Shown here: positions 32,640 to 52,754 of the stretch, piece by piece | Layout: every line of letters starts with the position of its first letter | How positions within the stretch are numbered: position 1 is the stretch's first letter | NCBI GenBank assembly: GCA_024641245.1 | Contig: JAHEDK010000002.1 | Span: 167,136-231,135 of the forward strand | DNA: 64,000 bases | Reading direction: 5' to 3' | From: Actinomycetes bacterium | GTDB lineage: Bacteria; Actinomycetota; Acidimicrobiia; Spongiisociales; JAHEDJ01 | Made by a program: the position numbers and the translations under genes | The notes under the pieces: generated by a model | Database searches by the model: none | Told to the model about the DNA's origin: nothing | What the model saw: only the letters and a program-made list of their open reading frames with translations

Positions 32640-32957
32640 ATGCACAGCATGGATCCACTAAGACATCCGGACCTCATCGAAGTATCTCGCCACCTTCGCC
32701 GGCAATGGGAACGAGTAGTCGAAGCAGAGCAGGCGGCCGCCCGGGCAACGTGGTTACGCCGGCGCACGCTGAGAGATCGCCTGATCGACGCCGAGGACCG
32801 TGGAGAGCAAGCAACCCTTTGGTGCATTGACGGCCGGGCCTCCACCGGCCTCGTGGGTGCGGTCGGTTCGGATCATGTCGTGTTACTCACAGGCGATCGG
32901 AGCCGTTTCGTCCTCCTGCACCAGATCGTCGCGGCCGGATTCGAAGCCGCCGAATGA
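32640..32957 (+). CDS. hypothetical protein
   Basis: ORF whose stop overlaps the ParA-like gene start; no motifs. Confidence 0.35.
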   Translation: MHSMDPLRHPDLIEVSRHLRRQWERVVEAEQAAARATWLRRRTLRDRLIDAEDRGEQATLWCIDGRASTGLVGAVGSDHVVLLTGDRSRFVLLHQIVAAGFEAAE

Positions 32958-33988
32958 ACCGCCCACGCATGGCCACGGTCCTGTCGGCGCGGGAATGGGA
33001 GCCGAGGCTGGTAGATGCAGCCCGGCGCGATCCGATCGTGAGGATCGTGCGTCGGGCGTATGAACCACAAGACCTGGAGCGCGCCGCACCACTCGACATC
33101 GTGGTGGTTGGATCCGAAACCTCATGGATAACATCCAATCGGATCCGGTTGATACGCCGGAGCGGAACGCACGTCATCGGCGTCTATCCAACAGGCGACG
33201 GACCTGGGCACGAACTCCTTCGTCGAGGCGGCGTCGACGTCGCATTGCCGGACACAACCACCCCGGAAGACCTGTTGAGTGCAGCGTCGGTGGTCGCGGC
33301 GCAGTCCCTAGCTCCGGTAGGCCGGGGCCGGCTCATCTCAGTCACGGGCCCGAGGGGGGCTCCGGGTCGAACAGAAATCGCCGTCTCCGTCGCGTACGCC
33401 ATCGCCGAACGCATCTCGACCGCGATCGTCGACCTCGACACCGAAGCCCCCGGGGTCACCTTCCGGATGGGGTTCGAACCCGGCGCCAACCTCATTGATA
33501 TCGCCGACGCCATCCGCACGACAGATCGACTCGTGGCACGGGATATCCGCCCGAACCTGACGGCGATCGGTGGGCCCGTCCCGCTCCGGACCGACCCCTC
33601 AAACAGGCTCGGAATCGCCGCACTCCTCGACGCCGTCCTGGCAGCATTCCCAGTCACCGTTGCGGATATCGGGCCGTGGAGGCCGGATCACTCGATCCTG
33701 GCCACCAGCGACGCGGCCGTCGTTGTATGTGACGCCTCCCCCATGAGTCTCATCAGAGCAGTGCAGTTCGTTCGCGACTGGGAGGGGCCAATTCCATACG
33801 TTGTCATCAATCGCGTCGGATCTGCGCAGGAGGAGGACATTCTTCGTTCTGCAAGAAGAGCAATGGGATTGGAGCCCCACACCCTCATTCCTGAGCTCTC
33901 GATTATCGATGGACGGGAAGGGCCGGCGCTCCGGCATCTCCTCGAATCCCTCGCAATCGACCTCCTGGCCGGCCCGCTCGATCTATGA
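32954..33988 (+). CDS. ParA/MinD/CpaE-like P-loop protein with degenerate Walker A (both Lys replaced by Arg) and N-terminal receiver-like domain
   Basis: ISVTGPRGAPGRTEIAVSVAYAIA aligns to KGGxGK[ST] but reads PRGAPGRT. Confidence 0.55.
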   Translation: MNRPRMATVLSAREWEPRLVDAARRDPIVRIVRRAYEPQDLERAAPLDIVVVGSETSWITSNRIRLIRRSGTHVIGVYPTGDGPGHELLRRGGVDVALPDTTTPEDLLSAASVVAAQSLAPVGRGRLISVTGPRGAPGRTEIAVSVAYAIAERISTAIVDLDTEAPGVTFRMGFEPGANLIDIADAIRTTDRLVARDIRPNLTAIGGPVPLRTDPSNRLGIAALLDAVLAAFPVTVADIGPWRPDHSILATSDAAVVVCDASPMSLIRAVQFVRDWEGPIPYVVINRVGSAQEEDILRSARRAMGLEPHTLIPELSIIDGREGPALRHLLESLAIDLLAGPLDL

Positions 33989-34101
33989 TCGGCGACGGCC
34001 CGGAGTCACAACTTCAAGGGCCGTTGGACCCTGTGCCGCGTTGACCTTTGGCAATACGGTGAAGGGCGGAGAGGAACAACTCAACTACATCGGGAGCCGC
34101 T

Positions 34102-34584
34102 GTGGCAGGAATGAGCCGTCGGACTTTCTTGAGTCGCGCCACCGCGTCGATTGTCGGCGGGATCGGCGCGCTGATGGGCATCCCCACGGTTGCCTATCTC
34201 ATTTCTCCTGCCAAGGCTCGCGGTGGTCTTGGAGTCGAGGCGATCCCGCTCGGGCCTACCAACAAAGTGCCAATCGGGGAACCCACCCTCTTCAAAGCAA
34301 CCATCGAGCGCAAGACCGGATGGGTCACGCAGGCCGAAGAGCTCGCCTTCTACGTCTTCACAGAAGACGGGCGCAACTTCACGGCACTGTCCAACGTTTG
34401 CACGCACCTTGGCTGCCGGGTGCGGTGGGTCGGCAACGAGAAACAGTTCTTCTGCCCTTGCCACAATGCCGTCTTCACCGAAACCGGGAAAGTGGTTTCG
34501 GGCCCACCGCCCAGAGCCCTAGACCAGTACGAGCTGTCGGTTGAAGGTGACCAGTTGTTCGTCGTCGGGAAGGTCGAAGCATGA
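34102..34584 (+). CDS. Rieske [2Fe-2S] iron-sulfur subunit of cytochrome bc/b6f-type complex (set 1), Tat-exported
   Basis: Twin-arginine signal (SRRTFLS); Rieske boxes CTHLGC and CPCHNAVF. Confidence 0.9.
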   Translation: MAGMSRRTFLSRATASIVGGIGALMGIPTVAYLISPAKARGGLGVEAIPLGPTNKVPIGEPTLFKATIERKTGWVTQAEELAFYVFTEDGRNFTALSNVCTHLGCRVRWVGNEKQFFCPCHNAVFTETGKVVSGPPPRALDQYELSVEGDQLFVVGKVEA

Positions 34585-35270
34585 TCCAGAAGCTCAGTGC
34601 TTGGTTCGAAGAGCGGATGGGATGGAAGCCGATCTGGACGGCACTGGCGCTCCGCAACATCCCCAAGGTCAACTGGCTGTACACGCTGGGCAGCGCCACG
34701 CTCCTCGTCACAGTGAACCAGATTCTGACCGGCATCCTCCTCACCATCTACTACGTCCCCAGCCCTCAGGATGCCTACAACAGCGTTGCCTTCATAACGA
34801 ACGAGATCACTGCCGGCTGGCTCATCAGAGGGCTGCATCATTGGGGTGCCAGTGCGATGGTCGTCCTGGCCGGACTCCACATGCTGCGGGTGGTCTTCCA
34901 CGGCGCCTATAAGTTCCCCCGCGAAATCACCTGGTTCACCGGACTCGGCCTCCTGGCCGTGACGATGGCCTTCGGATTCACCGGGTACTTGCTGCCGTGG
35001 GATCAGAAGGCTTACTGGGCTACCACGGTGGGTACCCGAATGCTGGAGGTGACACCCGTCATCGGTGATTGGCTGCTCCGGATCGCCCGCGGTGGGGAAG
35101 AGCTGTCGGCCGTGACGCTCACCCGGTTCTACGGAACCCATGTATGGGTGCTCCCGTCGGTGCTCCTGCTACTCCTGGGTATCCACCTCTTTCTGGTCGT
35201 CCGCGTCGGCATCAGCGCACCTCCGACACCCAAGGAGACAGACGAGAAGCCCAAAGTGTGGTTCGAATAA
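34581..35270 (+). CDS. cytochrome b6-like subunit (N-terminal half of cytochrome b), set 1
   Basis: Four TM helices with haem-ligand His pairs (GLHHWGASAMVVLAGLHMLRVVFHG; THVWVLPSVLLLLLGIHLF); ATGA overlap with Rieske gene. Confidence 0.9.
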   Translation: MIQKLSAWFEERMGWKPIWTALALRNIPKVNWLYTLGSATLLVTVNQILTGILLTIYYVPSPQDAYNSVAFITNEITAGWLIRGLHHWGASAMVVLAGLHMLRVVFHGAYKFPREITWFTGLGLLAVTMAFGFTGYLLPWDQKAYWATTVGTRMLEVTPVIGDWLLRIARGGEELSAVTLTRFYGTHVWVLPSVLLLLLGIHLFLVVRVGISAPPTPKETDEKPKVWFE

Positions 35271-37669
35271 TGAAACGCGAAGAACGCTCCAAATACCTCG
35301 AGGAGTACGCAGAGGACAAGAAGAAGGGCATCCCGTTCTTCCCGGACGCCGTGTTCAAGGACGTCCTGGTTGCATTGATCGTGTTGATCATTCTCATCGG
35401 CCTCGCCTACTTCGCAGGCGCCCCGCTCGAAGAACGTGCGAATCCATCCGACAGCGACTACACACCTCGACCGGAGTGGTACTTCCTCTGGCTCTTCCAA
35501 CTGCTCAAGTACTTTCCGGGCAACCTCGAGTTCGTCGGCGTCATCCTCCTGCCTGCCCTCGGATTCGCCATCCTCTTCGCCATGCCGTACCTGGACAGGA
35601 CCAAGCTCCGTCACTTCCGCAACCGCAGTTGGGTGATGGCATCAACCGGCGTCGCCGTGGTAGCCATGGGGTTTCTCACAGTCCAATCCATCAGGGAGAC
35701 CCCGGCGCCGGCCGACGTGAGCGGCACCATCAACGCCGCCGTTCTCTTCACCGAGAATTGCTCCGTATGCCACGGCACATCGATCGATGTCCCGACCGGG
35801 ATAAACCTGCATGAGACGATTGCCGGGGGTCACGAGGGGATGCCGGCCTTCGCAGCCACTCTGTCGACCGATGAAATCGATGCCCTCGCAGGATTCCTGG
35901 TCTCTCCGCAGGGAGGGGCGATATTCACCGCCAACTGCGCGGCATGCCACGATTCGAGTGACCTCGCCGCCGCCACCCCGTTCCAGCTCCAGGACGCCCT
36001 GAATCAAGGCACCGCCTACGCGCCGCATGATGGACTCGACATACCCGACTGGTCCGAGGTCCTCTTCGGCCAGGATCGAACCGCGCTCCTCAACTTCTTG
36101 CTTGCTCCGGACGGCCAGCGCCTCTACACGCTCTACTGCTCCGAATGTCACGGAACCTCGATCAGCTGGGAAGGGGAACGAGACGAACTCGAAGCGCTCA
36201 TCCGCCAGGGCGGCAACCACCTCGAGATGACCCAGTGGAGGGACGTGCTGCCGGAGGACCAGATCACCGAACTCGCTCTGTTCGTCGTCGAACCATCCAC
36301 GGCTCCCGGGGGCGAGCAACTGTTTGCACAGCACTGCTCGAGTTGTCACGGCGTGCGGGTGCCGAGCGCTCCCGACATAGAAACCGCCTACAACATCATC
36401 GCCGACGGTGCAGAGCACCGATCGATGCCTGTCTGGGGCGACGTTCTCACCGAGGAGCAGCTAACCGCACTCACAACCTACACGCTCGAAGCCAGTCGCG
36501 GCACACCGGTCATCGTCGGCCAGCAACTGTTCGGTCAATTGTGCTCGTCGTGCCACGGTGACTTCGGTGAAGGCGGCCCGAACCCCGCCGACCCCATCAG
36601 AATCATCCCTCCGATCAGTACGGCGAGCTATTTGGAGACCCGGGACGACGCCACGTTGCGCGCCATCATCTCAAAGGGTCAGTCGGACCAGGGCATGTCG
36701 CCTTTCCTGGAGAGCGAAGGTGGACCGCTGACCGAGGACGAGGTGAATGCCGTGGTTGCGTTCCTCCGTTCGTGGGAATCGGATCCGCCGGTCGATTTGC
36801 CGCCCGATCTTGCCCGTGGACCCGTCGCGGGTGGAAGCGTGCAGGTGTATGCGGCGTTCTGCGCCCAATGCCACGGAGCAGATGGGGCAGGCGGCCCCGA
36901 TTTGGTCGGTCCTTCCTTGACCTCGGCAGAATTCCAGGATTCCTTCACCGATGAGCAACTGCACGAGGCCATCGACCTCGGCCATGCTGCTACTTCGATG
37001 ATCGCCTGGGGCGAGGTCCTCACCGCCGATCAGATCCAGGGACTCGTCGACCACATCCGCTCGCTGGGCGGACGCGGTACCCTGCAGACGATCGTCTACG
37101 AACGCGACATTGCTCCGATCTTCCAGGCGTCTTGCGCCGGTTGCCACGGGTCGTCGGGGGGTTGGGATGCATCCACCATGGAGTCCGTGATCGGCAGCGG
37201 AAGCAGCGGGCCGGCCGTCGTCGCCGGCGATCCCGACGGGAGTCATCTCGTGCAGCGCCTTCGTGGCGAGGGCAACTTGATGCCCCCGGCCGGAGCGCTG
37301 CCGGACAACCAACTCGATCTGATCGTGCAATGGATTGCCGGGGGAGCAACCGCCGAAGTGACAACAGGCGACGCGCAATCCGGCGGCGGCGACATCGGTG
37401 ATTACACGTGGACGAAGGATGTCCAGCCGATCCTGCAGGCCAGTTGCGCGGCCTGCCACGGATCGTCCGGGGGTTGGTACGCGGGGACGTACAGCTCCAC
37501 GATCAACAGCGGCGACAGCGGTCCGGCCGTCGTCCCTGGGAATGCCGACGACAGTTCGATGATCCAACGACTGCTCGGCAACGGCAACCTGATGCCGCCG
37601 GGAGCTCCGCTTTCGGAAGAACAGATCGCCGTCCTGATCTACTGGGTCAACAGCGGCGCCAAGGAATAG
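35270..37669 (+). CDS. cytochrome b subunit IV (PEWY-containing) fused to an octahaem c-type cytochrome domain
   Basis: N-terminal 150 aa = subunit IV (TPRPEWYFLWLF; 3 TM). Then eight CxxCH motifs (CSVCH, CAACH, CSECH, CSSCH, CSSCH, CAQCH, CAGCH, CAACH); the last two sit in repeated CxxCHGSSGGW...GNLMPP modules. Start overlaps the upstream stop (TAATG). Confidence 0.85.
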   Translation: MKREERSKYLEEYAEDKKKGIPFFPDAVFKDVLVALIVLIILIGLAYFAGAPLEERANPSDSDYTPRPEWYFLWLFQLLKYFPGNLEFVGVILLPALGFAILFAMPYLDRTKLRHFRNRSWVMASTGVAVVAMGFLTVQSIRETPAPADVSGTINAAVLFTENCSVCHGTSIDVPTGINLHETIAGGHEGMPAFAATLSTDEIDALAGFLVSPQGGAIFTANCAACHDSSDLAAATPFQLQDALNQGTAYAPHDGLDIPDWSEVLFGQDRTALLNFLLAPDGQRLYTLYCSECHGTSISWEGERDELEALIRQGGNHLEMTQWRDVLPEDQITELALFVVEPSTAPGGEQLFAQHCSSCHGVRVPSAPDIETAYNIIADGAEHRSMPVWGDVLTEEQLTALTTYTLEASRGTPVIVGQQLFGQLCSSCHGDFGEGGPNPADPIRIIPPISTASYLETRDDATLRAIISKGQSDQGMSPFLESEGGPLTEDEVNAVVAFLRSWESDPPVDLPPDLARGPVAGGSVQVYAAFCAQCHGADGAGGPDLVGPSLTSAEFQDSFTDEQLHEAIDLGHAATSMIAWGEVLTADQIQGLVDHIRSLGGRGTLQTIVYERDIAPIFQASCAGCHGSSGGWDASTMESVIGSGSSGPAVVAGDPDGSHLVQRLRGEGNLMPPAGALPDNQLDLIVQWIAGGATAEVTTGDAQSGGGDIGDYTWTKDVQPILQASCAACHGSSGGWYAGTYSSTINSGDSGPAVVPGNADDSSMIQRLLGNGNLMPPGAPLSEEQIAVLIYWVNSGAKE

Positions 37670-37811
37670 TCAATACGAAGCACTCAACACGAGGTGCGGC
37701 GTTCGGCCCGTCGCGATTCGACACTCCGTCGGGTCGGGTTGCTACTCTCCACCGCACCCCGGCGCCGAGCCGGGAGTCGTACAGTAGGGTGTCGACGACG
37801 GAGCATCTGGT

Positions 37812-39608
37812 ATGGAGAAACTTCACTTCTTCGACGAGAACATCCCCTGTCTCGCCGCCTGTCCGGTCAACACGAATGCCGGCATGTACGTTGCCGCCAT
37901 CGCAGACGGACAGGATGAACTGGCCTATCTAACCGCTCGCCTCCCCAACCCGTTCGCCTCCGTCTGCGGTCGGGTTTGTGCGGCGCCATGCGAGGACGCC
38001 TGTCGGCGCGGCGAAATCGACAAGCCCATCGCCATCCGGGCGCTCAAGCGATTCGTCACCGATCAATTCGGCGTCGAATCCGGCATGGATACCTACCGGC
38101 AGGTCGCCGCCCCTGCTCTCGAGTCGCGATCACAAAGCGTCGGGATTGTCGGAGGGGGCCCGGCCGGCCTGGCCGCCGCCCACGACCTCCGCCGCCTCGG
38201 CTACGGCGTCACGCTGTACGAAGCCACCGGTCAGCTCGGCGGCATGATGCTGCTGGGGATCCCCGAGTACCGCCTTGATCGATCCCTCCTGGCGGCGGAG
38301 ATCAAGGCCATCACCGACCTGGGCGTCGAGGTTCGGTTGAACACGAAACTCGGCGATGGCATCACGCTCGATGACCTCCGCCGGCAGCACGATGCCCTAT
38401 TCGTGGCCATCGGGGCGACCCTCGGACGCGGACTCGACCTCGAAGGCCACGACGCAGACGGGGTGTTGAAGGCGATCGAGTACCTGATCAACGCCAACCA
38501 GGGGTTCGCAACCGACGTCGGTCAGAAGGTGGTCGTAATCGGTGGCGGCGACGTGGCGATGGATGCAGCAAGGACCGCGCTACGAGCTGCAACCTACGAT
38601 GAGATCGCCCGCCGCCATGCCGAATACGACGAAGAGGACGGGCGCTCATCCATGACGGAAGCCCTCGACGTGGCTCGCACGGCTGCCCGGACTGGTGCTC
38701 AGGACATAACCATCATGTCACTCGAGGCCAAACACGAGATGCCGGCGTCGGAGTTCGAGGTCGAAGAGGCCGAGCACGAGGACATCAAGTTTGTCAACCG
38801 GCGCGGTCCCGCCCGGATACTCACCGCCGATGGCAAGGTCACCGGCATCGAGACGATCGGGGTCACGCGCGTTTTCGACGAGAACGGCCGGTTCTCCCCT
38901 GAATTCGACGATGCAGATCGGCTGACGCTGGAGGCAGACACCATCATCATGGCTATCGGCCAGGCGATCGATGTTGAGGCACTGGGAGCGAACGGCCCTG
39001 AGTTGAGTCCTCGCAAGACAATCCAAGTGGGTGAGGACAGCCTGGCGACTTCGCTTCCGATGGTATGGGCCGGCGGCGATGCAGCCAGGGGCCCGCGCAC
39101 TCTCATCGATGCGATCGCAGACGGCCGGATTGCGGCCCGTGAGATCCACGAGGCGTTTGGCGGCAGCTTCGCCGAGCAGGATACCGGAACCATGGTGCAA
39201 CTGGACCAGTTCCACCGTCTCGACGACATCTACGACCGGGTCCCCCGGGTCGCCGTGCCCACGCTGCCGACGGACCGGCGCATCGGTCTGGCAGAAGTCG
39301 AAACAGGGTTCACCGTCGAAGAGGCCAGGTGTGAGGCACAGAGGTGTCTGCGCTGCTTCGCCAACATCCTGCTCGATACCGACATTTGTGTTTTATGCGC
39401 GCTGTGCGCCGACGTCTGCCCGCTCGACCTGATTTCGCTGGTTCCCTCGGAGGACATTCACCCAGACGAGCCGGGTGGCACGGCGTTAATGTTGAACGAG
39501 CAAAGCTGCATCCGTTGCGCGCTGTGTATTGAGCGATGCCCGACAGATGCACTGTCGATGGGACTGTGGACCGGAGTGGGAGTGCCGAAATTGGGAGCAC
39601 CGGTATGA
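37812..39608 (+). CDS. GltD-like FAD/NAD(P)H-dependent oxidoreductase with N-terminal Fe-S domain and C-terminal 2x[4Fe-4S] ferredoxin domain
   Basis: N-terminal Cys cluster (CLAACPV...CGRVCAAPCEDAC), FAD motif GIVGGGPAGLAAA, NAD(P) motif VVVIGGGDVAMDAA, C-terminal CLRCF...CVLCALCADVCP and CIRCALCIERCP. Confidence 0.85.
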   Translation: MEKLHFFDENIPCLAACPVNTNAGMYVAAIADGQDELAYLTARLPNPFASVCGRVCAAPCEDACRRGEIDKPIAIRALKRFVTDQFGVESGMDTYRQVAAPALESRSQSVGIVGGGPAGLAAAHDLRRLGYGVTLYEATGQLGGMMLLGIPEYRLDRSLLAAEIKAITDLGVEVRLNTKLGDGITLDDLRRQHDALFVAIGATLGRGLDLEGHDADGVLKAIEYLINANQGFATDVGQKVVVIGGGDVAMDAARTALRAATYDEIARRHAEYDEEDGRSSMTEALDVARTAARTGAQDITIMSLEAKHEMPASEFEVEEAEHEDIKFVNRRGPARILTADGKVTGIETIGVTRVFDENGRFSPEFDDADRLTLEADTIIMAIGQAIDVEALGANGPELSPRKTIQVGEDSLATSLPMVWAGGDAARGPRTLIDAIADGRIAAREIHEAFGGSFAEQDTGTMVQLDQFHRLDDIYDRVPRVAVPTLPTDRRIGLAEVETGFTVEEARCEAQRCLRCFANILLDTDICVLCALCADVCPLDLISLVPSEDIHPDEPGGTALMLNEQSCIRCALCIERCPTDALSMGLWTGVGVPKLGAPV

Positions 39609-40342
39609 CATTGGGCCAACGAATCCGCGAAAGCACGATAGGTCGTTCGATCTGGCGCGCCACCGACCGAACCACCGAACGCGACCAGGCGGCCGGTCAC
39701 TGGGCGAACTTCTTTCTGCACATCTACCCGGTGAAAGTGCGCAAGAAGGAGATCACGTTCCGCTATTCCTGGTATCTAGGTGTGGCGTCGGTGGTCCTGT
39801 TCGGATCGCTGATCGTTTCGGGCATCTACCTGATGTTCTTCTACGTCCCGTCGCCTGCCCAGGCCTACGGCGACATCCTCAACCTGCAAACGCGGGTCGC
39901 GTTCGGACAGTACATCCGCAACGTGCACCGCTGGTCGGCTCACCTCATGGTGCTGGTGGTGGCCGCGCACATGGCCCGGGTGTTTTATCGAGGGGCATAC
40001 AAGAAACCCCGCGAATTCAACTGGGGTATCGGCGTGATCCTCCTCGTGCTCACGCTGCTCCTTTCGTTCACCGGCTACCTGCTCCCCTGGGACCAGCTCG
40101 CCTACTGGGCGGTCACGGTCGGCACCGAGATGGCCGCCTTCGTCCCGCTGATCGGGGACACCGTCAAGGAAATGATGCTGGGTGGGCCGGTGGTTGCTTC
40201 GTCGACGCTGCTGCGGTTCTACGTTCTGCATGTCGCCGTTCTGCCCACGGCTGTCGTTCTCCTCATCACAATCCATATGTGGAGATGGCGCAAAGACAGC
40301 ATGCTCGACGCGGCGAAGGAGGGTGTTGATGTCGACGCCTAG
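39605..40342 (+). CDS. cytochrome b6-like subunit, set 2
   Basis: His pairs (NVHRWSAHLMVLVVAAHMARVFYRG; FYVLHVAVLPTAVVLLITIHMW); ATGA overlap with upstream gene. Confidence 0.9.
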   Translation: MTLGQRIRESTIGRSIWRATDRTTERDQAAGHWANFFLHIYPVKVRKKEITFRYSWYLGVASVVLFGSLIVSGIYLMFFYVPSPAQAYGDILNLQTRVAFGQYIRNVHRWSAHLMVLVVAAHMARVFYRGAYKKPREFNWGIGVILLVLTLLLSFTGYLLPWDQLAYWAVTVGTEMAAFVPLIGDTVKEMMLGGPVVASSTLLRFYVLHVAVLPTAVVLLITIHMWRWRKDSMLDAAKEGVDVDA

Positions 40343-40865
40343 ACCAGATCAGGAAAATCCTGAGATCGTCGCCGGACAACGGGTGCTCGGGGTTGTTCCA
40401 GGCAAGCCGCCGGGCGGCGACCGCAAGGTTCTGAGCGAGCAGGAACCGGTCATGGTCTGGCCGCACCTACTCGTCCGCCACGGGGTGGCGGCGCTGGTGG
40501 TCATCGCCGTCGTTCTGGTGCTTGCCATATTCTTCGATGCCCCGCTGCGTGAGATCGCCAACCCCACGCTGACGCCCAACCCGGAAAAGGCCCCCTGGTA
40601 TTTCGCGGCGCTCCAGGAGCTGCTCTCGATGTTCCATCCGCTGGTGGCCGGTGTGCTGGTCCCGGGCGCCATCGTCCTCGGGCTCTTCGCGCTTCCGTAT
40701 GTGGATCGGACTTCGACGATCGAGCCGCGGTTCCGCAAGGTGGCGGTGGCGACGTTCACGATCTTCATGGTCGTGTGGATAGTCCTGACGGTTATCGGAT
40801 TCGCCTTCCGCGGCCCCAACTGGGGTTGGGTGTGGCCATGGCAAGAGTGGTACGGAGAGCTATGA
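40329..40865 (+). CDS. cytochrome b subunit IV-like protein, set 2 (Qo-site motif variant APWY)
   Basis: Three TM helices; NPEKAPWYFAALQELL in place of the canonical PEWY; coupled start (overlaps upstream stop). Confidence 0.8.
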   Translation: MSTPRPDQENPEIVAGQRVLGVVPGKPPGGDRKVLSEQEPVMVWPHLLVRHGVAALVVIAVVLVLAIFFDAPLREIANPTLTPNPEKAPWYFAALQELLSMFHPLVAGVLVPGAIVLGLFALPYVDRTSTIEPRFRKVAVATFTIFMVVWIVLTVIGFAFRGPNWGWVWPWQEWYGEL

Positions 40866-41368
40866 GCAACGGAATCGGTCGGAGAGAATTCCTATCCCGG
40901 GCCTGGAAGTGGGGTGCCGCCCTCATCGGTGTCGCCGGCGGTTGGACCACGTGGGATATCCTGCAGCCCCGGGTCACCGGAGGCTTTGGTGGCGTCATCA
41001 AGACCAAGGCAGCCGACACAGTGCCGGACACCAACGTCGAATCCATCCGGGCCGCCAGAACCTACCTGACGAAGATCGACGGGCAGGTTGTAGCCCTCTC
41101 CGAGAAATGCCCGCACCTCGGTTGCCGGGTGCCGTGGTGTGATTCGTCCGGACAGTTCGAGTGCCCGTGCCACGGCTCGGTCTTCAACCGGGCGGGCGAG
41201 TACCGCGCAGGGCCCGCTCCCCGCGGAATGGACCGCTACGAGTTCGAGACGATCGACGGCATCGTCTACGTAGACACCGGAGCACCGGTATCCGGGCCGG
41301 CAATCGGTGTGGAGACCCTCAACGAACCCGTACGAGGGCCATCGTGTGAGGACAGCTCCCATGGGTGA
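40862..41368 (+). CDS. Rieske [2Fe-2S] iron-sulfur subunit, set 2, Tat-exported
   Basis: RREFLSR twin-arginine signal; CPHLGC and CPCHGSVF boxes; ATGA overlap. Confidence 0.9.
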   Translation: MSNGIGRREFLSRAWKWGAALIGVAGGWTTWDILQPRVTGGFGGVIKTKAADTVPDTNVESIRAARTYLTKIDGQVVALSEKCPHLGCRVPWCDSSGQFECPCHGSVFNRAGEYRAGPAPRGMDRYEFETIDGIVYVDTGAPVSGPAIGVETLNEPVRGPSCEDSSHG

Positions 41369-41825
41369 GCGTCCGGTTGACCAGGAACTCGAACAGTCGA
41401 CCGTCAGATGGATGCAGGCCGGACTGGCCCTGATGGTCGTCCTGGTGCTGGCGTTTCCCGCCTACCGGCTCCTCGAACCTACCAACCGCGAAGAAGCACG
41501 CGACCTCTTGACGGAAGAACTCGCCGTCCAGGGCGAAGAGCTATTCGCGGGGCAGTGCGCCTCCTGTCACGGCGAAAAGGGGCTGAATGGACCGATCGGT
41601 CCGTCGCTCAACTCGAAGCAGTTCCTGGAGGCGGCCACCGACAGCCAGATCATCAGCCTCGTCTCGGTCGGCGTCCCGGGCTCTCAGATGGGCGCCTACT
41701 CGATCGACTTCGGAGGCCCACTGACACTCGAGCAAATCACCGGCATCGCAACCTATCTGCGCTCGCTGGAGAAAGACGCCCCGGACAATCCTGACTGGCG
41801 AGCAGTAGTAACGCCGGGGAGCTAG
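41361..41825 (+). CDS. membrane-anchored monohaem class I cytochrome c
   Basis: N-terminal TM helix; single CASCHG haem motif with downstream Met ligand region; start overlaps Rieske stop. Confidence 0.75.
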   Translation: MGERPVDQELEQSTVRWMQAGLALMVVLVLAFPAYRLLEPTNREEARDLLTEELAVQGEELFAGQCASCHGEKGLNGPIGPSLNSKQFLEAATDSQIISLVSVGVPGSQMGAYSIDFGGPLTLEQITGIATYLRSLEKDAPDNPDWRAVVTPGS

Positions 41826-41948
41826 TCGCGGGTTGCTAGTCGCGGGTTGCTAGCTCACAGGCGACCCTCTCGCGCGTTTCTCCCCCGCACCGGCGGGGGA
41901 GATGCCGAGGTCCACGAGGCAGAGGGGGTTACTCGCGACCGCGACCCG
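41826..41948. terminator. convergent-gene terminator region with 14-bp tandem repeat (gctagtcgcgggtt x2) and perfect hairpin tctcccccgc-accg-gcgggggaga
   Basis: Lies between the + strand cytochrome c gene and the - strand ccmE; strong GC hairpin readable on both strands. Confidence 0.5.
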
Positions 41949-42371
41949 CTACGCGTCCGTCGGGACCTCGTAGGGGTGCCCTTCGTCCTCGGGCGCTTGG
42001 TACTGCTCGTCGTGTTTGACGACCAGCTGGTCGCTGCGGAAGACGTCACCGTCCCAGGCGCCTTCGACGATCGCACCGACGCCTTCGCGGAACAGTTCCG
42101 GTGGGGCTCCCTGGTGCACGATGTGCACTTCATGGGCACCGTCGGACACGGTGAACTCGACTCCATCCGAGGTGGCAACCAGTGTCCCGACTTCGACCTG
42201 ACCGCCGAGCCGGAACCGCTCACCATCGGGGAACTGAGCCCTCTGCTCGATAGCTTCGTTGGGGGTCAAGTAGTAGACGAGGTTCTCGCCGAGGCTGAGA
42301 AACACCATCCATCCGATGATCACAACGATCGCTCCGATGGCGGGAAGTACGAACCAGCGATATCGAGTCAT
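41949..42371 (-). CDS. ccmE: cytochrome c maturation haem chaperone CcmE
   Basis: N-terminal anchor, OB-fold, haem-binding His in LVVKHDEQYQAP. Confidence 0.9.
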   Translation of the reverse strand: MTRYRWFVLPAIGAIVVIIGWMVFLSLGENLVYYLTPNEAIEQRAQFPDGERFRLGGQVEVGTLVATSDGVEFTVSDGAHEVHIVHQGAPPELFREGVGAIVEGAWDGDVFRSDQLVVKHDEQYQAPEDEGHPYEVPTDA

Positions 42372-42372
42372 G

Positions 42373-42486
42373 TCAGCCCTCCACCCGGCGGCGGACGCTG
42401 CGCAGGCGCACAGTCAAGAACACCGCATATCCGATCATGAAGCCGTACACCACCGTGTAGGCAAAAACGACCCATCCGTTAGACAT
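42373..42486 (-). CDS. ccmD: haem exporter protein CcmD (37 aa)
   Basis: Unannotated small ORF MSNGWVVFAYTVVYGFMIGYAVFLTVRLRSVRRRVEG between ccmC and ccmE; single TM plus basic tail as in CcmD; overlaps ccmC stop and abuts ccmE start. Confidence 0.6.
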   Translation of the reverse strand: MSNGWVVFAYTVVYGFMIGYAVFLTVRLRSVRRRVEG

Positions 42487-43204
42487 CTCGCACCTTCTCG
42501 AGGTTGGGAGCCGTGATGGCGGCACCGGCGGGCGTGGCATCAGCGGCGGCGGATTGTTCTTCGAGTTGTTCCTCGCCCCTGGCGATGGCCGTCTTGACGC
42601 TCATGAAGGCGAGATAGACCACGGTGAACGCTCCAACGTTGCTGAGCAACGCCAGCAGGATCTCTCCATCGATCGGAGAATCCGGTCGCACCACCGTGAT
42701 CCCCTGGTGCAACGTGCGAACGATGATCACCGAAACGTAGGACAGCGGCACGAGGAAGAAGGCCACGATGCCCAGCACCGCGGATCTCGTCGCCCGCATG
42801 GCCGGGTCGGGAATGCTGCGGCGCAAAGCCAGGTAACCGAGGTAGACGAAGAACATGAGGGCCGTCGTCATCATGCGGGCATCGCCCCAGTCCCAGAACG
42901 TCCCCCACACCGGGTAACCCCAGATCATGCCGGTCATGAGCGCCAGCGCGGTGAAGAACACGCCGACCGAGACGCTGGACTCGGCGATTCGATCGTAAAC
43001 GGGCTTGCGTCTCGCCAGCCACAGGATCGAGGCGGCGAACGTCACAAGAAACGAGAGGTAGGCAAGCCACGCCGAAGGTACGTGCACGTACATGATGCGG
43101 GTGTAGTCGCCCTGCAACTGATCGAGCGGCGCCTGGCCACCGAAGTAGAAGCCGACCAGCACCGCTGCCAGTGCGATCAACCCGAGTATTCGATGTCTAT
43201 TCAA
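42479..43204 (-). CDS. ccmC: haem exporter / haem lyase subunit CcmC
   Basis: WGTFWDWGD (WWD domain) motif and 6 TM helices. Confidence 0.9.
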   Translation of the reverse strand: MNRHRILGLIALAAVLVGFYFGGQAPLDQLQGDYTRIMYVHVPSAWLAYLSFLVTFAASILWLARRKPVYDRIAESSVSVGVFFTALALMTGMIWGYPVWGTFWDWGDARMMTTALMFFVYLGYLALRRSIPDPAMRATRSAVLGIVAFFLVPLSYVSVIIVRTLHQGITVVRPDSPIDGEILLALLSNVGAFTVVYLAFMSVKTAIARGEEQLEEQSAAADATPAGAAITAPNLEKVRDV

Positions 43205-43881
43205 CGTGAGGCCTCCTCGAGGAATCGGGCGGTCAGCACACCTACCACTGCCAGCCCGAGTACCACGGCAAGTAGCAGAAGGATGGGAGTGAGGATACTT
43301 GACTTCTGAGCCAACGCTTCATACGTCTGTGATGCTCCGACGAGCAGCGGCAACGCCAGCGGTGCCACCAGCAGCGGTGCCAGCGTGTTACGAGAGCGCA
43401 GACCGGCCGTGATACCGGAGGCGAGCGTACCGATGAGCGCCAGGCCGACGGCCATCAGCAGAAGGACCAAAATCAGGATCGCCCACCCCTCTACCGGGTC
43501 CGGGTTGTAGAGGATGATCGTGGCGGGCGCAAGCACTCCTTCGAACACGAGCAACAGGAGGACGCTCGCCACAACCCTGCCCGCGAACTGCGCGGCCGGG
43601 TCCACGCCGAGCAACACCATCATCTCGCGATTGGCCGAACTCTCTGTGGCCGACTGGCGGAACGTGACCAGCATCCCGAACAGCAGGGTCACGACCCAGA
43701 ACATGCCCGGTCCGATCGAGGCGATGAGTGGACGGTCGGTCCCGATCGCCAGCGGGATGAGCAGCAGCGCAACCGCTCCAAACGGGATCGTGATGTTCAG
43801 GACCTCGCCGGTCCGTCCTTCGACCCGCAGATCCTTCAACCCGATCTCATATGCCTGGCCCCAGAACGACGGACCGCTCAT
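43201..43881 (-). CDS. ccmB: haem exporter membrane protein CcmB
   Basis: CcmB-type 6-TM ABC permease; 4-nt overlaps with ccmC and ccmA. Confidence 0.85.
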   Translation of the reverse strand: MSGPSFWGQAYEIGLKDLRVEGRTGEVLNITIPFGAVALLLIPLAIGTDRPLIASIGPGMFWVVTLLFGMLVTFRQSATESSANREMMVLLGVDPAAQFAGRVVASVLLLLVFEGVLAPATIILYNPDPVEGWAILILVLLLMAVGLALIGTLASGITAGLRSRNTLAPLLVAPLALPLLVGASQTYEALAQKSSILTPILLLLAVVLGLAVVGVLTARFLEEASR

Positions 43882-44534
43882 GATGAGCTCCCCGCGATCA
43901 CGATCCCACCCGTCAGCTCATAGGTCGATTGCACCAGCGGCAGCATGCGATCGAGTTCGTGGGACACGAAGACGGCGGCGCCACCACGGGAACGGACGTT
44001 CTCGACAACTGCGTCGACGAGTTGTCCGGCCTCTCGATCTAGTCCGGCGTGGGCCTCATCGAGCAGCAGTAGGTCGGGCCTGGTGAGAATCACCCTGGCG
44101 AACTCAACTCGCCGCTGCATACCATGCGACGACTGCTCCGCCCGCCGGTGCTTCGCCCCACCCAGCCCGACCACGTCGAGCATCTCATCTACCCGCTCGT
44201 CAGTGTGGCCCGACAACCGGGCGACGAAGGCGAGATTCTCACGCAGCGTCAACTGCGGGTAGAGCGCCGGTTGATGGCCGATCAGCGCGATCCGGCGCCG
44301 GATCGCAAACGCCGTCGCTTCGCCCATCTCGGTGCCGAACACCGCCACCGAGCCCTCCGTCGGTCGCAGCAACGTGGCCAGCACCCGGAGCAGCGTCGAC
44401 TTTCCCGAACCATTCGGCCCAACGATCCCGGCTGCCTCCCCGGACGGTACCGCCAGCTCCACGCCCTTCAATACCGGCACCCGGCCGTATCGAACGGCGA
44501 CGCCGTGCAGCTGCACTGTGGGAGGTGTGGACAT
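43878..44534 (-). CDS. ccmA: haem ABC exporter ATPase CcmA
   Basis: Walker A GPNGSGKST, signature and Walker B LLLDEA; start set at internal ATG (MSTPPTVQLHGV). Confidence 0.85.
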   Translation of the reverse strand: MSTPPTVQLHGVAVRYGRVPVLKGVELAVPSGEAAGIVGPNGSGKSTLLRVLATLLRPTEGSVAVFGTEMGEATAFAIRRRIALIGHQPALYPQLTLRENLAFVARLSGHTDERVDEMLDVVGLGGAKHRRAEQSSHGMQRRVEFARVILTRPDLLLLDEAHAGLDREAGQLVDAVVENVRSRGGAAVFVSHELDRMLPLVQSTYELTGGIVIAGSSS

Positions 44535-44804
44535 GACAGACGAGTGTACGCACGCAGCTTCGGGCGCCGAAACGCGACCCCGGATAAACACCACCCGTTC
44601 TCTCCCTTTCGCCACCTTTTCAGGGTTTTATGGCGGGTTTCAACCCAGGCAGGGCCCAAGTGCCCCAGGGCGCGAGGACTTTGCGCTGTTGGTGTGTTTC
44701 CGATATACCCGTATCCTCTGCAATGAGAAACGGGGGACCGACCCTGAATCGCCGCCGGAACGGCTCATTCACACGGTGATCCCCATGGAGGAAGGCACAG
44801 CAAA

Positions 44805-46844
44805 ATGAACGCGACCCTCGGGTATCTCTCGATCCTGGCCGCAGTGGTGGGAGCGCTCGGTATCACCGTGCGGGGTTTCATCGCGATGCGTGATCCGGAG
44901 CGGGCGAACAAAGGGTATCTGGGGTTGCCCGTCATACTGTTCGTGTCCGGAGCCGTCGGCGCAATGTTCTTCCTGGAACTCGGGCTTCTCACCGACGACT
45001 TCTCGATCAAGTACATCGCCAACAACTCCTCGACCACCACCCCGTTTCTCTTCAAGGTCGCCTCTGGATGGGCATCGCTGGAGGGATCGATCGTTTTGTG
45101 GGGTCTGGTCCTGGCCGGCTTCACATTCGCCGTATACGCACGGTTCTTCAGAAGCGAAAGCGGCGACCGGCTCGCAGCAGGGGCTCTGGCGATCATGGGG
45201 CTCATCTCTCTTTACTTCTTCGGGCTAATGGCCACAATCTCCGACCCATTCGCTCGCTGCGTGCAAACGTTCAGCGACGGTGTCGGTTGTGTGACCGGCG
45301 AGAACGCGATCCTCGCCAACGTGATCTCCTCCCCGATCGAAGGGCGCGGCGCCAACGCACTGCTCCAGAACCATTGGCTCATGGCCCTGCATCCACCAAC
45401 GCTCTACGTCGGCTATGTCGGGCTCAGCGTCCCCTTTGCGTTTGCCATCTCGGCGCTCCTCCTCAAAACCACCGGGGCGGCCTGGCTGACCCGGACCCGC
45501 AACTGGACGGTGTTCGCCTGGATGTTCCTCACTGCCGGCATTGTTCTCGGTGGGCTCTGGTCGTATGAGGTGCTCGGCTGGGGCGGCTACTGGGCATGGG
45601 ACCCGGTTGAGAACGCCTCCTTCATGCCGTGGCTGGTCGCGACTGCCTTCTTGCACTCGTCTGTCGTGCAGGCGAGGCGCGGGATGCTGCAGTCGTGGAA
45701 CTTCGTCCTCGTCATCACGACCTTCGCGCTCACGATTCTCGGCACCTTCTTGACCCGCTCCGGCGTAATCGTTTCGGTTCACAGCTTCTCGCAGTCCGCC
45801 ATCGGGCCTGCCCTGTTGATCTTCCTGGTGGTCGTGCTGCTGGGATCGCTCGGGCTCTTCGCGTCAAGGGCTCACACCATCGCCTCTTCTCCCCGGCTCG
45901 ATTCACTCAGCAGCCGGGAAGGGGTGTTCTTGTTCAACAACCTTCTGCTCACCGTGTTCGCGTTCATGGTGCTGACAGGGACGCTCTACCCGCTCTTCGT
46001 TGAGGCGTTCTCCGACTCGACGGTGGGCGTCGGTCGTCCGTTCTTCGATCGCATGGCGATCCCGTTGTCCTTCCTGTTGCTGCTGGCGATGGGCATCGGA
46101 CCGGTCTCGCCCTACCGGGCGGCGAGCGCCCGCGTCGTGTGGGAGCGGATTCGCTGGCCCGTCCGGGTTGCCCTCGGCGCCGCCGCGCTGGCCGTCGTGT
46201 TCGGCTATCGGAACTCGTTCCTGCTGCTCGGTGTTCTGGCCGCCGTGTTCGTCATGGGCGTGATCATCCGCAACCTCTACGACGCCGCCCGGACCAGGGC
46301 AGACAAACTCGGTATCGGACGGAGACAGGCCGCCGCCCGGATCATGCGCGGCGACCCGCACTATTGGGGTGGCCAGATCTCCCACCTGGGCGTTGCGATA
46401 CTGGCACTGGGCATCGCCTTCTCAGCCAACCTGTCGGAGACCGCCACGGTGACCATCGACGCCGGAGATACGGTCAACTTCGCCGGCTTCGAGGTGACCT
46501 ACGAACAGGAGTTCAGCCGCCAGGAACCGGGCCGGTTCGTCACCGGAGCAGACATCACGGTGACCCGGGACGGGTCGGTCGTCGGTACGTACCAGCCACG
46601 GCTGAATCAGTACGGCAACACGCGGGAATCGATCGCCACCCCAGAGGTCGACACCATGTTCTCAGGCGACCTGTACCTCTCGCTCCGCAGCATCGATCCT
46701 TCATCCGTGACCCTCGAGGTCTATTGGTTCCCGTTCATCTGGCTCATCTGGGTTGGAGGCTTCCTGGCGGCCGCCGCCGGGGTCTGGGGATTCGCGGTCA
46801 AGAAGCCCGAACGTTCGGTTGCACGGGACGACACGCGTGTCTGA
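44805..46844 (+). CDS. ccmF: cytochrome c-type biogenesis protein CcmF
   Basis: WGGYWAWDPVEN WWD motif; ~15 TM; RBS ggaggaagg. Confidence 0.9.
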   Translation: MNATLGYLSILAAVVGALGITVRGFIAMRDPERANKGYLGLPVILFVSGAVGAMFFLELGLLTDDFSIKYIANNSSTTTPFLFKVASGWASLEGSIVLWGLVLAGFTFAVYARFFRSESGDRLAAGALAIMGLISLYFFGLMATISDPFARCVQTFSDGVGCVTGENAILANVISSPIEGRGANALLQNHWLMALHPPTLYVGYVGLSVPFAFAISALLLKTTGAAWLTRTRNWTVFAWMFLTAGIVLGGLWSYEVLGWGGYWAWDPVENASFMPWLVATAFLHSSVVQARRGMLQSWNFVLVITTFALTILGTFLTRSGVIVSVHSFSQSAIGPALLIFLVVVLLGSLGLFASRAHTIASSPRLDSLSSREGVFLFNNLLLTVFAFMVLTGTLYPLFVEAFSDSTVGVGRPFFDRMAIPLSFLLLLAMGIGPVSPYRAASARVVWERIRWPVRVALGAAALAVVFGYRNSFLLLGVLAAVFVMGVIIRNLYDAARTRADKLGIGRRQAAARIMRGDPHYWGGQISHLGVAILALGIAFSANLSETATVTIDAGDTVNFAGFEVTYEQEFSRQEPGRFVTGADITVTRDGSVVGTYQPRLNQYGNTRESIATPEVDTMFSGDLYLSLRSIDPSSVTLEVYWFPFIWLIWVGGFLAAAAGVWGFAVKKPERSVARDDTRV

Positions 46845-47250
46845 TTCGATTCGCAAGATCGCGGCGGCGGTGGTGACTATCGGCCTGGCGGTTGTCGTCG
46901 TAATCGGCCTCATCCAGGGCGACCGAACCGATGAAGATCGCGCCCGGTCCATCGGCTCCAGAGTGAAGTGTCCCGTTTGCCAGGGCGTAGCCATTGCCGA
47001 TTCTCCTTCGGAAACTGCCAGAGCGATGATGGACGTCGTCGAAGAGCGAATCGCAGACGGGTGGTCGGACAGACAGATCATCGACTACTTCGCGGAGCGC
47101 TACACCGACAGCATCGTCATCGACCCGCCCTTCAGCGGGAATACGCTGCTCGTCTGGCTGCTGCCGATCCTGGCAGTAGTCGCAGGCTTCTTCATGATCT
47201 TCTCCCGGCGCAAGACGCCGGTGCCAAAACCCGATGAGGTGAAACAGTGA
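46837..47250 (+). CDS. ccmH: cytochrome c-type biogenesis protein CcmH (CxxC)
   Basis: VKCPVCQG motif, C-terminal TM; GTG start overlapping ccmF stop. Confidence 0.75.
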   Translation: MSDSIRKIAAAVVTIGLAVVVVIGLIQGDRTDEDRARSIGSRVKCPVCQGVAIADSPSETARAMMDVVEERIADGWSDRQIIDYFAERYTDSIVIDPPFSGNTLLVWLLPILAVVAGFFMIFSRRKTPVPKPDEVKQ

Positions 47251-48080
47251 GCAACTTCAACCAGGAGTCATACGATCGGGCGGTCGCCCGCAAGGAACTG
47301 GCCTTGACCGATCTCGAAGAGCTGGCCCAGCAGGTGGACGACGGTGAGATCGACGCGCCCACCGCGGCAGGACTCCGGAGCGGCTACGAGGCTGAACTCG
47401 GCGCGGCCGAAGCCGAACTGGCCAGACTCGGTCCACCGCCCACTCCCAAGAAGTCGCCCGGTCAAGCGTCGACCAAACGTGCGCCGAGCGAGAACGGACG
47501 GCCGGCCCGGAAGTCGAGCGACTTGAATACTCGTCTGCTGGTCGGCGCCGGCATTCTCATCGTCGCCCTCGTCGTGATTCTCATCTCGGTCCAGAATTCG
47601 GCGCAGCCGGATCCGGCCGCGATGGGCACCCAGGTGACGACGGCAAGCGGCGAGGACCCCTGCGCGGAGCTGGCCGACGCGTTGACCAGTCACTCCGACA
47701 ACGGCTTTCGTCTCGCACTGGCCGACTGCTACGCAGACGTCGGAAACGCCATGTCGGCGATCGAGCACTACCGGGCCGTCGCCGATGCCGAAGGTGCCGC
47801 CGACGGCGAGGTCGCACGGGCAAACGTGGGACTCGGCTTCCTCAACCTTCAAATCGGTGAGCTCGCCAAGGCCGCCGACTACATGCGCGTGGCGCTCGAG
47901 CGCGACGCCGCCAACGTCGAAGCTCAATACTTCCTGGGCATGATGCTCGTCTACGACCTCGGCGATCCGGCCGCAGGAGCCCCATATCTCGAGTCGGTAC
48001 TCGCAACTCCCGACCTGCCGGAGACGGTGATCCTCGAAATCCAGGCAGCGCTCGATGTCGCGGCGGGCGAGGGCTCATGA
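47247..48080 (+). CDS. CcmI/CycH-like TPR protein
   Basis: N-terminal coiled-coil, single TM, C-terminal TPR repeats; translationally coupled between ccmH and ccmG. Confidence 0.55.
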   Translation: MSNFNQESYDRAVARKELALTDLEELAQQVDDGEIDAPTAAGLRSGYEAELGAAEAELARLGPPPTPKKSPGQASTKRAPSENGRPARKSSDLNTRLLVGAGILIVALVVILISVQNSAQPDPAAMGTQVTTASGEDPCAELADALTSHSDNGFRLALADCYADVGNAMSAIEHYRAVADAEGAADGEVARANVGLGFLNLQIGELAKAADYMRVALERDAANVEAQYFLGMMLVYDLGDPAAGAPYLESVLATPDLPETVILEIQAALDVAAGEGS

Positions 48081-49484: not shown

Positions 49485-49625
49485 TCGGGCCCGTTTCCGC
49501 AGGTTAGCTTGTAGCAATTCCCAATCTTGTGCGCCCTTTCACATGGGTCGAATGACCCTACGCGATCTGCGCGCGGATCCGTCATCATGTCGGTACACGA
49601 GTCGAGTAGCTCCCGGGGAGGAAGC

Positions 49626-52720: not shown

Positions 52721-52754
52721 CAAGGTTGGGTGTGACAAATCCCGAACCCAGTGA

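Follow-up and report, generated by a model that had tools for sequence, protein, structure and literature searches.

Where two sets of genes for a Rieske protein, a cytochrome b6 and a subunit IV (SUIV) follow one another on the same strand, is a single complex encoded, or are there two? The question is raised by positions 34102-41825 of a 64,000-nucleotide stretch (the window) of contig JAHEDK010000002.1, from an Actinomycetes bacterium assembly (GCA_024641245.1). The G+C content of the window is 62-65%, and the proteins nearly identical to its products (97-100%) originate from metagenome-assembled genomes (MAGs) of Acidimicrobiia. Judged by genome comparison, the locus is composed of two evolutionarily independent modules, referred to as module 1 (34102-37669) and module 2 (37812-41825). 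With moderate confidence, they are read here as two independent quinol-oxidising complexes, module 1 being of the QcrABC type and module 2 an anammox-like, NAD(P)-linked complex proposed to bifurcate electrons.

Domain calls were obtained by Pfam and NCBIfam profile searches of the open reading frame (ORF) products of 34102-41825 (Table 1). An original prediction, made from the letters of the sequence, had described a nine-gene operon. The ORFs and their domain content were borne out by the profile searches, but eight coding regions were counted, all on the + strand, and the list given in that prediction also comprises eight. The 4-nt ATGA overlaps at 34581, 39605 and 40862 are present in the sequence, with further overlaps of 1 nt at 35270, about 14 nt at 40329 and 8 nt at 41361. 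The sole intergenic gap is 37670-37811 (142 nt), as predicted.

Table 1. Position and main characteristics of the features of the locus and of the adjoining maturation genes
Feature	Position	Strand	Characteristics
Module 1 Rieske protein (Rieske1)	34102-34584	+	160 aa; PF00355, 1e-12
Module 1 cytochrome b6 (cytb1), four-helix	34581-35270	+	229 aa; PF00033, 7e-50
Module 1 SUIV-cytochrome c fusion	35270-37669	+	PF00032, 2.5e-11; PF13442, 7 stretches; PSCyt1 x2
Conserved non-coding block	37714-37811	+	98 nt directly upstream of flavoprotein ATG
Module 2 GltD/NfnB-like NAD(P)-binding Fe-S flavoprotein	37812-39608	+	598 aa; predicted cytoplasmic
Module 2 cytochrome b6 (cytb2)	39605-40342	+	245 aa; PF00033
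Module 2 SUIV (SUIV2)	40329-40865	+	178 aa; 3 transmembrane (TM) helices; PF00032
Module 2 Rieske protein (Rieske2)	40862-41368	+	168 aa
Module 2 membrane-anchored monohaem class-I cytochrome c	41361-41825	+	154 aa; one CxxCH; N-terminal anchor
ccmE, C, B, A	41949-44615	-	System I cytochrome c maturation
ccmF, ccmH, ResA-like gene	44805-48685	+	With ccmE, C, B, A, complete System I set

Two modules with separate histories

The eight window proteins were compared by tblastn to 24 related genome loci carrying the flavoprotein (loci are numbered with the prefix L). All of them are MAGs; the label is Acidimicrobiia or another Actinomycetota group for 19, just 'bacterium' for four and Gemmatimonadales for one (L003). 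The genes of module 2 are present in these loci wherever the fetched sequence reaches, with identities of 65-91%. Module 1 adjoins module 2 only in L001, L002, L006 and L012, which are the closest relatives (about 90% identity in the flavoprotein). Of the 19 fetched Acidimicrobiia loci whose upstream flank measures 1.2 kb or more, 17 carry module 2 but not module 1; the same holds for L032, a 4.16-Mb contig. In ten loci and in L032, the upstream neighbour of module 2 is a divergent COX2-COX1 operon with SCO1 copper chaperones, and a TM-anchored monohaem cytochrome c gene (about 240-320 aa) precedes the flavoprotein gene with a TGATG overlap. Neither COX1 nor another haem-copper oxidase gene was found in the 64-kb window.

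The 344-aa ORF at 32954-33988 was considered as the window's counterpart of the cytochrome c preceding the flavoprotein elsewhere and was rejected, as no similarity was detected. The upstream cytochrome c of L009 (6030-7001) shows no more than a generic class-I similarity to the octahaem fusion of module 1. At the end of the COX2-COX1 operon, an unusual fusion protein of 770-820 aa is encoded in many Acidimicrobiia, for instance in L009 (1254-3713, - strand) and L032 (3205-5526, - strand), with homologues in L004, L010, L013, L019 and L020. It consists of an N-terminal b6-like cytochrome b, a 2x[4Fe-4S] ferredoxin, an FlpD/MvhD-like part and C-terminal cytochrome c domains, and no published description of such a fusion was found.

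Module 1 is likewise found by itself. In Anaerolineales locus L029, the trio of Rieske, cytochrome b6 and SUIV-multihaem cytochrome genes stands alone, with no GltD-like gene after it, and adjoins ccmF, ccmE and multihaem cytochrome genes. Homologues of these neighbours, at 46-55% identity, are located in the window at 49527-51698 and 61800-64000. Since each module occurs without the other and each has its own conserved partners, the two are regarded as evolutionarily independent.

The gap between the modules holds a non-coding block that hardly varies among the window, L001, L002, L006 and L012; the adjoining 3' coding end of the fusion gene diverges. The block contains an extended -10-like sequence, TGCTACTCT, a sequence-variable hairpin and short TCGAC/CGTCG inverted repeats, and a GGAG Shine-Dalgarno sequence is located nine bases before the flavoprotein ATG. 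A structured RNA was considered for this element but is not supported, its fold being no more stable than those of shuffled sequences (z = -0.23) and only 3 of 32 pairs covarying among five close sequences. No Rfam family matched positions 37600-37900, and a promoter and terminator consensus scan of 33700-42500 returned nothing above shuffle expectation and no signal in the gap. It is only a guess that the block may serve as promoter and 5' untranslated region of module 2.

The original prediction had also envisaged a heterodimeric bc complex, with the octahaem fusion as part of the NAD(P)-linked machinery. In such a scheme, the single operon would give rise to one super-complex bringing together both cores, the octahaem subunit and the flavoprotein. 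The common strand, the tight coupling within each half, a gap of merely 142 nt in which no terminator was detected and the retention of the arrangement in the four closest relatives are all compatible with it. We nevertheless consider it quite improbable, as the adjacency is limited to one shallow clade, each half is found alone elsewhere and a conserved non-coding element separates them. Moreover, the cores are distant paralogues from different clades (PEWY-cytochrome c with TLGS for module 1, APWY with an N-terminal His for module 2), their cytochromes b being 46% identical, and the multihaem partners of module 1 are shared with Anaerolineales. The octahaem fusion belongs to module 1 and is inherited separately from the NAD(P)-linked genes.

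The flavoprotein-linked module and its relatives

The flavoprotein of module 2 comprises a Fer4_20 domain (residues 10-86), a Pyr_redox_2 domain with FAD and NAD(P) Rossmann folds (110-438) and a 2x[4Fe-4S] domain (526-580), and has neither signal peptide nor TM segment. The N-terminal Fe-S cluster and the two C-terminal 4Fe-4S clusters of the original prediction are present, but the total amounts to about four Fe-S sites, contributed by a six-Cys N-terminal domain, a C-terminal RCLRC motif and two ferredoxin CxxCxxCxxxCP motifs. The RCLxC motif (C512, C515, in residues 507-536) lies just ahead of the 2x[4Fe-4S] domain. Whereas RCLxC normally opens the Fer4_20 domain in GltD and NfnB, it is C-terminal in the window protein, in the anammox proteins and in other homologues, whose N-terminal domain retains only six Cys. 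With respect to the Bfu-type NfnA, this shift resembles a circular permutation of the elements that bind the clusters. A charged insertion of about 45 aa, RAATYDEIARRHAEYDEEDGRSSMTEALDVARTAARTGAQ, is also present in the NAD(P)-binding domain (residues ~258-300) and is shared by the Acidimicrobiia, Nitrospinota and Desulfomonilaceae homologues.

The best PDB matches of the flavoprotein are NfnABC (9bov/9bp5) and FwdF (5t5i), the top match reaching 303 bits (E = 6e-89). A Fer4_20 domain and an FAD/NAD(P) Rossmann core are shared with the Bfu-type NfnABC and with GltD/NfnB. Unlike these, the window protein is a stand-alone subunit with RCLxC and 2x[4Fe-4S] at its C-terminus, and its gene is coupled to that of a membrane cytochrome b and not, as in NfnABC, to soluble Nfn/Bfu partners.

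Might the flavoprotein be a soluble metabolic enzyme, either GltD or a subunit of an Nfn-type transhydrogenase, located beside bc genes by chance? Its best family models are of the GltD/NfnB type and the source annotation reads 'glutamate synthase beta subunit-like oxidoreductase'. However, its scores fall well under the equivalog cut-offs, both for GltD proper (TIGR01317, 201.6 against 447.7; TIGR01318, 226.8 against 482.95) and for gltA (TIGR01316, 279.7 against 471.75), and no GltB large-subunit or NfnA partner gene was found in the cluster or nearby. Its gene is coupled to cytb2 by a 4-nt overlap, and the linkage to Rieske/cytochrome b genes is kept in Acidimicrobiia, Nitrospinota, Desulfomonilaceae, Brocadiales-type Planctomycetota and two metagenome contigs. 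A chance neighbour of this kind is accordingly very improbable, and the opinion in the original prediction that the protein is no ordinary glutamate synthase subunit holds. The linkage is not strict, as a Scalinduaceae paralogue (L030) is located away from bc genes and the wider flavoprotein family is not exclusively bc-associated.

In the bc core of module 2, cytb2 displays an N-terminal extension with His39 (NFFLHIYPVKV) and a C-terminal WRWRKD motif (Arg229). His39 is invariant in the aligned sequences (14 Acidimicrobiia, one Nitrospinota, one Desulfomonilaceae and L028), and the whole His-bearing segment is missing from cytb1. The haem c_n Cys is absent from cytb2, which reads YLGV, and from the other Acidimicrobiia orthologues. 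In SUIV2, the APWY Qo motif (NPEKAPWYF) does not vary across the window and 19 loci. Rieske2 carries a Tat-type GRREFL signal and a CPCHGSVF box II; all its orthologues display CPCHG[S/T].F, with Ser everywhere except in two loci with Thr. Its best PDB matches are 9rk3 and 9rk4, the crystal structures of Kustd1480 and Kuste4569. The module ends with the monohaem cytochrome c gene in those Acidimicrobiia loci whose downstream flank is long enough, and no HAO-like gene was found in the module-2 cluster.

Scores against the models of the actinobacterial QcrCAB complex (long QcrB, QcrA and dihaem QcrC) are far below the cut-offs: 125 and 113 for NF050120 (cut-off 500), 44.7 and 22.5 for NF050121 (275), 68 and 33 for NF050122 (200). 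By their motifs and their best similarity to the L031 and L025 cytochromes b, we infer that SUIV2 and cytb2 belong to the APWY clade (PMC4122944), or subfamily G (PMC5600118). Module 2 shares with this group the APWY motif, the split cytochrome b, the association with an NAD(P)-binding Fe-S oxidoreductase, the patchy distribution over many phyla and the occurrence in deep-branching Actinobacteria. It differs from the many members that retain CxGG, a motif lacking in cytb2.

The flavoprotein was also compared by phmmer to 1.84 billion cluster representatives, and full-length relatives were found at 39-50% identity. Cluster look-ups assigned some of them to Nitrospinota, Nitrospirota, Myxococcota, Desulfomonilaceae, Tectomicrobia, Scalinduaceae and Brocadiaceae/'Ca. 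Wunengus', the Brocadiaceae/Wunengus and Scalinduaceae proteins being among the best 150 matches. In five of the six neighbourhoods retrieved for such relatives (L025, L026, L027, L028 and L031), the flavoprotein gene is directly beside Rieske/cytochrome b genes. In the Nitrospinota locus L025, it is followed by genes for a long cytochrome b, a Rieske protein and a cytochrome c; in the metagenome contig L027, it is followed by the Rieske gene. In the Desulfomonilaceae locus L026 and the metagenome contig L028, the order is flavoprotein, Rieske, cytochrome b and cytochrome c, then clade II nosZ and nosD.

The nosZ-linked clusters extend over L026:7001-15863 and L028:7001-15959, and their nosZ is of clade II (nos_propeller). 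This arrangement suggests that some clade II N2O reductases may draw their electrons from an NAD(P)-linked bc complex. Rieske/cytochrome b genes are mentioned in the literature on clade II nos clusters; no mention of the flavoprotein was found there. In L025, a 319-aa protein with an EB_dh (ethylbenzene-dehydrogenase-type haem-binding) domain is encoded directly before the flavoprotein gene (2070-3029). A sigma-54 two-component regulator gene is located upstream of it, and in L026 and L027, too, genes for sigma-54 activators lie ahead of the module.

The closest described analogue is, as originally predicted, the R/b-3 complex of anammox bacteria (Kuste4569-4574), according to PDB matches, identities and shared motifs. 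The Brocadiales-type locus L031 was used as a stand-in for the Kuenenia R/b-3 locus; its gene order (Rieske, flavoprotein, cytochrome b, 240-aa SUIV, multihaem cytochrome c, HAO-like octahaem protein) is that of kuste4569-4574, and its cytochrome b carries the published His43/Arg247 numbering. The window flavoprotein is 36% identical to the L031 NAD(P) oxidoreductase (residues 4-586 against 17-572, E = 7e-109), and its best PDB matches 9bp5 and 5t5i are also the two structural homologues given for Kuste4570 (PMC12954380). With the L031 cytochrome b, cytb2 shares 44% identity (E = 3e-66) and cytb1 only 38%; the values for SUIV2 and Rieske2 with their L031 counterparts are 42% and 30%.

Module 2 resembles R/b-3, through L031, in its split b6-type cytochrome b and SUIV, its APWY Qo motif, the presence of the homologous flavoprotein gene inside the cluster and the Ser at the redox-tuning site of Rieske2. 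In the alignment with the L031 cytochrome b, His39 and Arg229 of cytb2 match its His43 and Arg247, the N-terminal His and C-terminal Arg that have been proposed to bind an interface haem; in Kuste4571, residues of these numbers are given for an extra haem b predicted by AlphaFold3 between the cytochrome b dimer and the NAD(P) reductase (PMC12954380). The differences are as follows. The flavoprotein gene is first in module 2 and the Rieske gene comes after SUIV; SUIV2 has 3 TM helices (178 aa) where the L031 protein has 5 (240 aa, two further hydrophobic segments); cytb2 has YLGV in place of the CMGG haem c_n site of L031. A monohaem class-I cytochrome c replaces the multihaem cytochrome c and the HAO-like octahaem protein, the NAD-domain insertion of the flavoprotein is missing from the anammox-type protein, and in sister lineages the module has a haem-copper oxidase as its genomic partner.

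A comparison with R/b-2 (Kustd1480-1485), limited to the Rieske protein as regards sequence, shows that the CPCHGS.F signature of Rieske2 corresponds to Ser114/Phe116 of Kustd1480. An NAD(P) oxidoreductase subunit is present in both systems, but the cytochrome c is hexa- or octahaem in R/b-2 and monohaem in module 2. The potentials measured for the anammox Rieske homologues are +303 and +335 mV, the latter being that of Kustd1480 (PMC12954380). By its gene content and motifs, module 2 is the same kind of enzyme as anammox R/b-2 and R/b-3, in a minimal form.

The Geobacter ExtOPQ system (Rieske, cytochrome b, membrane protein) was also considered, as the best NCBIfam matches are ExtP for cytb2 (260.5 bits) and ExtQ for SUIV2 (61.8 bits). 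This identity was rejected, these scores being below the respective cut-offs of 290 and 150. In addition, the ext cluster includes no NAD(P) oxidoreductase and encodes 10- and 12-haem cytochromes and a porin (PMC5877670).

Module 1 and the downstream cytochromes

The Rieske protein of module 1 has a Tat-type SRRTFL signal and a CPCHNAVF box II, in which Ala occupies the redox-tuning Ser position; this is the low-potential type, typical of menaquinol-type Rieske proteins. Its best PDB match is the cyanobacterial PetC, and it is 58% identical to the Rieske protein of Anaerolineales L029. The short cytb1, devoid of the N-terminal extension, is 69% identical to the L029 cytochrome b and displays TLGS where the haem c_n CxGG motif is expected. 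TLGS has been reported in the short cytochromes b of Rubrobacter and Conexibacter (PMC5600118). In the fusion protein, a SUIV part with 3 TM helices and the PEWY Qo motif (RPEWYF) is followed by exactly eight CxxCH motifs, distributed over six Cytochrome_CBB3/class-I domains and two last domains of the PSCyt1 type. Homologues at 73-87% identity are restricted to a small Acidimicrobiia clade; beyond it, there are hundreds of proteins of about 700 aa at about 53% identity, those with a name being from Anaerolineales.

The PEWY motif, the SUIV-cytochrome c fusion and the succession of Rieske, cytochrome b and SUIV-cytochrome c genes are those of the PEWY-cytochrome c clade, which includes the Bacillus-type QcrABC (PMC4122944), and the low-potential Rieske signature is shared as well. 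Because of this gene order, of PEWY, of TLGS and of the Rieske type, module 1 is assigned to the menaquinol:cytochrome c reductases of the Bacillus-QcrABC type. It differs from Bacillus-type QcrABC by its eight haem domains instead of one, by TLGS instead of CxGG and by its nearest relatives, the ~700-aa Anaerolineales fusions found within multihaem cytochrome clusters. Most plausibly, module 1 is the entry or exit of the quinol pool for a multihaem cytochrome network, and the network it would most likely feed is the one encoded downstream.

This downstream island (41949-64000) begins with the ccm genes (Table 1). Beyond them, at least six multihaem cytochromes are encoded with a total of 51 CxxCH; their lengths are 229, 723, 384, 500, 290 and 369 aa, with 5, 10, 6, 11, 10 and 9 CxxCH, respectively. 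The island also encodes an NHL-repeat protein, an Rrf2 regulator and a cytochrome b561-like protein with a PSCyt1-type haem motif, which runs off the end of the window. Three island genes have homologues (46-55%) that lie together with a bc complex of the module-1 type in Anaerolineales L029, which suggests that the island and this type of module form a shared extracellular or periplasmic electron-transfer system, possibly laterally transferred. In the middle of the island, the ORF at 51797-52912 (- strand) combines an AbiEi antitoxin C-terminal domain with an REase_MTES_1575 domain, a composition that hints at an inserted mobile or defence element.

Proposed working and significance of module 2

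In the established b6f topology, both termini of a four-helix b6 are on the n-side. Because of this orientation, and as the flavoprotein is devoid of export signal and membrane segment, His39 and Arg229 should lie where the flavoprotein must dock. A model of bifurcation at the Qo site was proposed for the anammox complexes (Kartal 2013, as summarised in PMC12954380). For module 2 it is the best-supported working model, and can be briefly outlined as follows. The flavoprotein would be docked on the n-side of the APWY b6-type complex and menaquinol would be oxidised at the APWY Qo site. The first electron would be transferred to the Ser-type, higher-potential Rieske2, then to the monohaem cytochrome c and a terminal oxidase. 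The second electron would cross haems bL and bH and perhaps an extra haem b, lodged between the two His39 of the cytochrome b dimer, before reaching FAD by way of the 2x[4Fe-4S] domain and the two further Fe-S sites; NAD(P)+ would then be reduced. The terminal acceptor branch would be a haem-copper oxidase in the sister Acidimicrobiia, NosZ in Desulfomonilaceae and an HAO-like enzyme in anammox bacteria, and the overall reaction should be reversible. By analogy with the anammox complexes, we infer the physical assembly of module 2, its extra haem and the direction of its electron flow. The bifurcating direction is favoured because the module is consistently paired with very high-potential terminal enzymes and because its Rieske protein is of the Ser type. 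The nosZ genes next to the clusters of L026 and L028 and the cytochrome c gene of L025 accord with a high-potential branch joined to an NAD(P) branch.

Several points weigh against this reading. To our knowledge, no NAD(P)-linked Rieske/cytochrome b complex has been biochemically characterised in any organism. Acidimicrobiia are mostly described as aerobic heterotrophs; such organisms have no obvious need for a quinol-driven synthesis of NAD(P)H, which makes the opposite direction plausible. Even for the anammox complexes, bifurcation to NAD(P)+ is a proposal (PMC12954380), and the extra haem draws on AlphaFold3 modelling by others together with the residue conservation observed here. As cytb2 lacks the c_n Cys kept in the anammox cytochrome b, the n-side electron path may also differ. 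Finally, the 142-nt gap is compatible with read-through co-transcription of both modules.

In the opposite direction, electrons would flow from NAD(P)H through FAD and the Fe-S sites to the b haems. Module 2 would then be a membrane-anchored NAD(P)H:quinone or NAD(P)H:cytochrome c oxidoreductase, or would operate by confurcation, cytochrome c and NAD(P)H together reducing menaquinone at Qo. Such a flow is thermodynamically downhill, and in the aerobic heterotroph lineages where the neighbour is a haem-copper oxidase, NAD(P)H is a donor and not a scarce product. Subfamily-G cytochromes b have been read as membrane anchors of cytoplasmic oxidoreductases (Dibrova et al., PMC5600118), and APWY complexes have been proposed to run in reverse (Kao & Hunte, PMC4122944). 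However, the full Qo machinery (Rieske, APWY SUIV, cytochrome c) is strictly conserved and would be superfluous for a simple NAD(P)H:quinone reductase, and a Ser-type Rieske points to an elevated potential, like that of the anammox homologues, which favours a strong forward driving force. The reverse operation is therefore retained as a real though rather unlikely possibility. As for bifurcation, its most extended form is put forward tentatively: a widespread NAD(P)-linked APWY complex that, in Acidimicrobiia, would be wired to a haem-copper oxidase and would transfer electrons from menaquinol to NAD(P)H by way of the His39 haem, O2 pulling the high-potential electron.

Comparative genomics and anammox proteomics had already revealed the kind of system to which module 2 belongs. 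NAD(P)-binding Fe-S oxidoreductases have been noted beside subfamily-G cytochromes b "in many other cases" (Dibrova 2017, PMC5600118), and split PEWY/APWY cytochromes b have been listed in Rubrobacteridae and, for one strain, in Acidimicrobidae (Kao & Hunte 2014, PMC4122944); Ilumatobacter coccineus YM16-304 figures in that listing. The belief that the arrangement had not been described in Actinobacteria was consequently overstated. No description of the flavoprotein-bc module of Acidimicrobiia, of its minimal composition or of its pairing with a haem-copper oxidase was found in a literature search. The analysis also corrects the tempting view of two consecutive bc cores as one hetero-complex.

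NAD(P)-oxidoreductase Rieske/cytochrome b complexes were found in anammox bacteria, which are available as slow-growing, genetically intractable enrichment cultures. Module 2 is a stripped-down version with five subunits, or six where the upstream cytochrome c gene is present, having a single haem c per cytochrome c subunit and neither HAO-like protein nor haem c_n. In Acidimicrobiia it occurs frequently, with a haem-copper oxidase as its usual partner (24 loci and L032). The NAD(P)-bifurcation hypothesis and the predicted extra haem b could therefore be studied on a simpler system in module 2, by heterologous expression, cryo-EM and enzymology. Should bifurcation with an oxidase prove true, the "low-potential" electron of a bc complex would have a third possible destination, reverse electron flow would have a route independent of the proton-motive force, and the NAD(P)-linked APWY complex would not be an anammox speciality.

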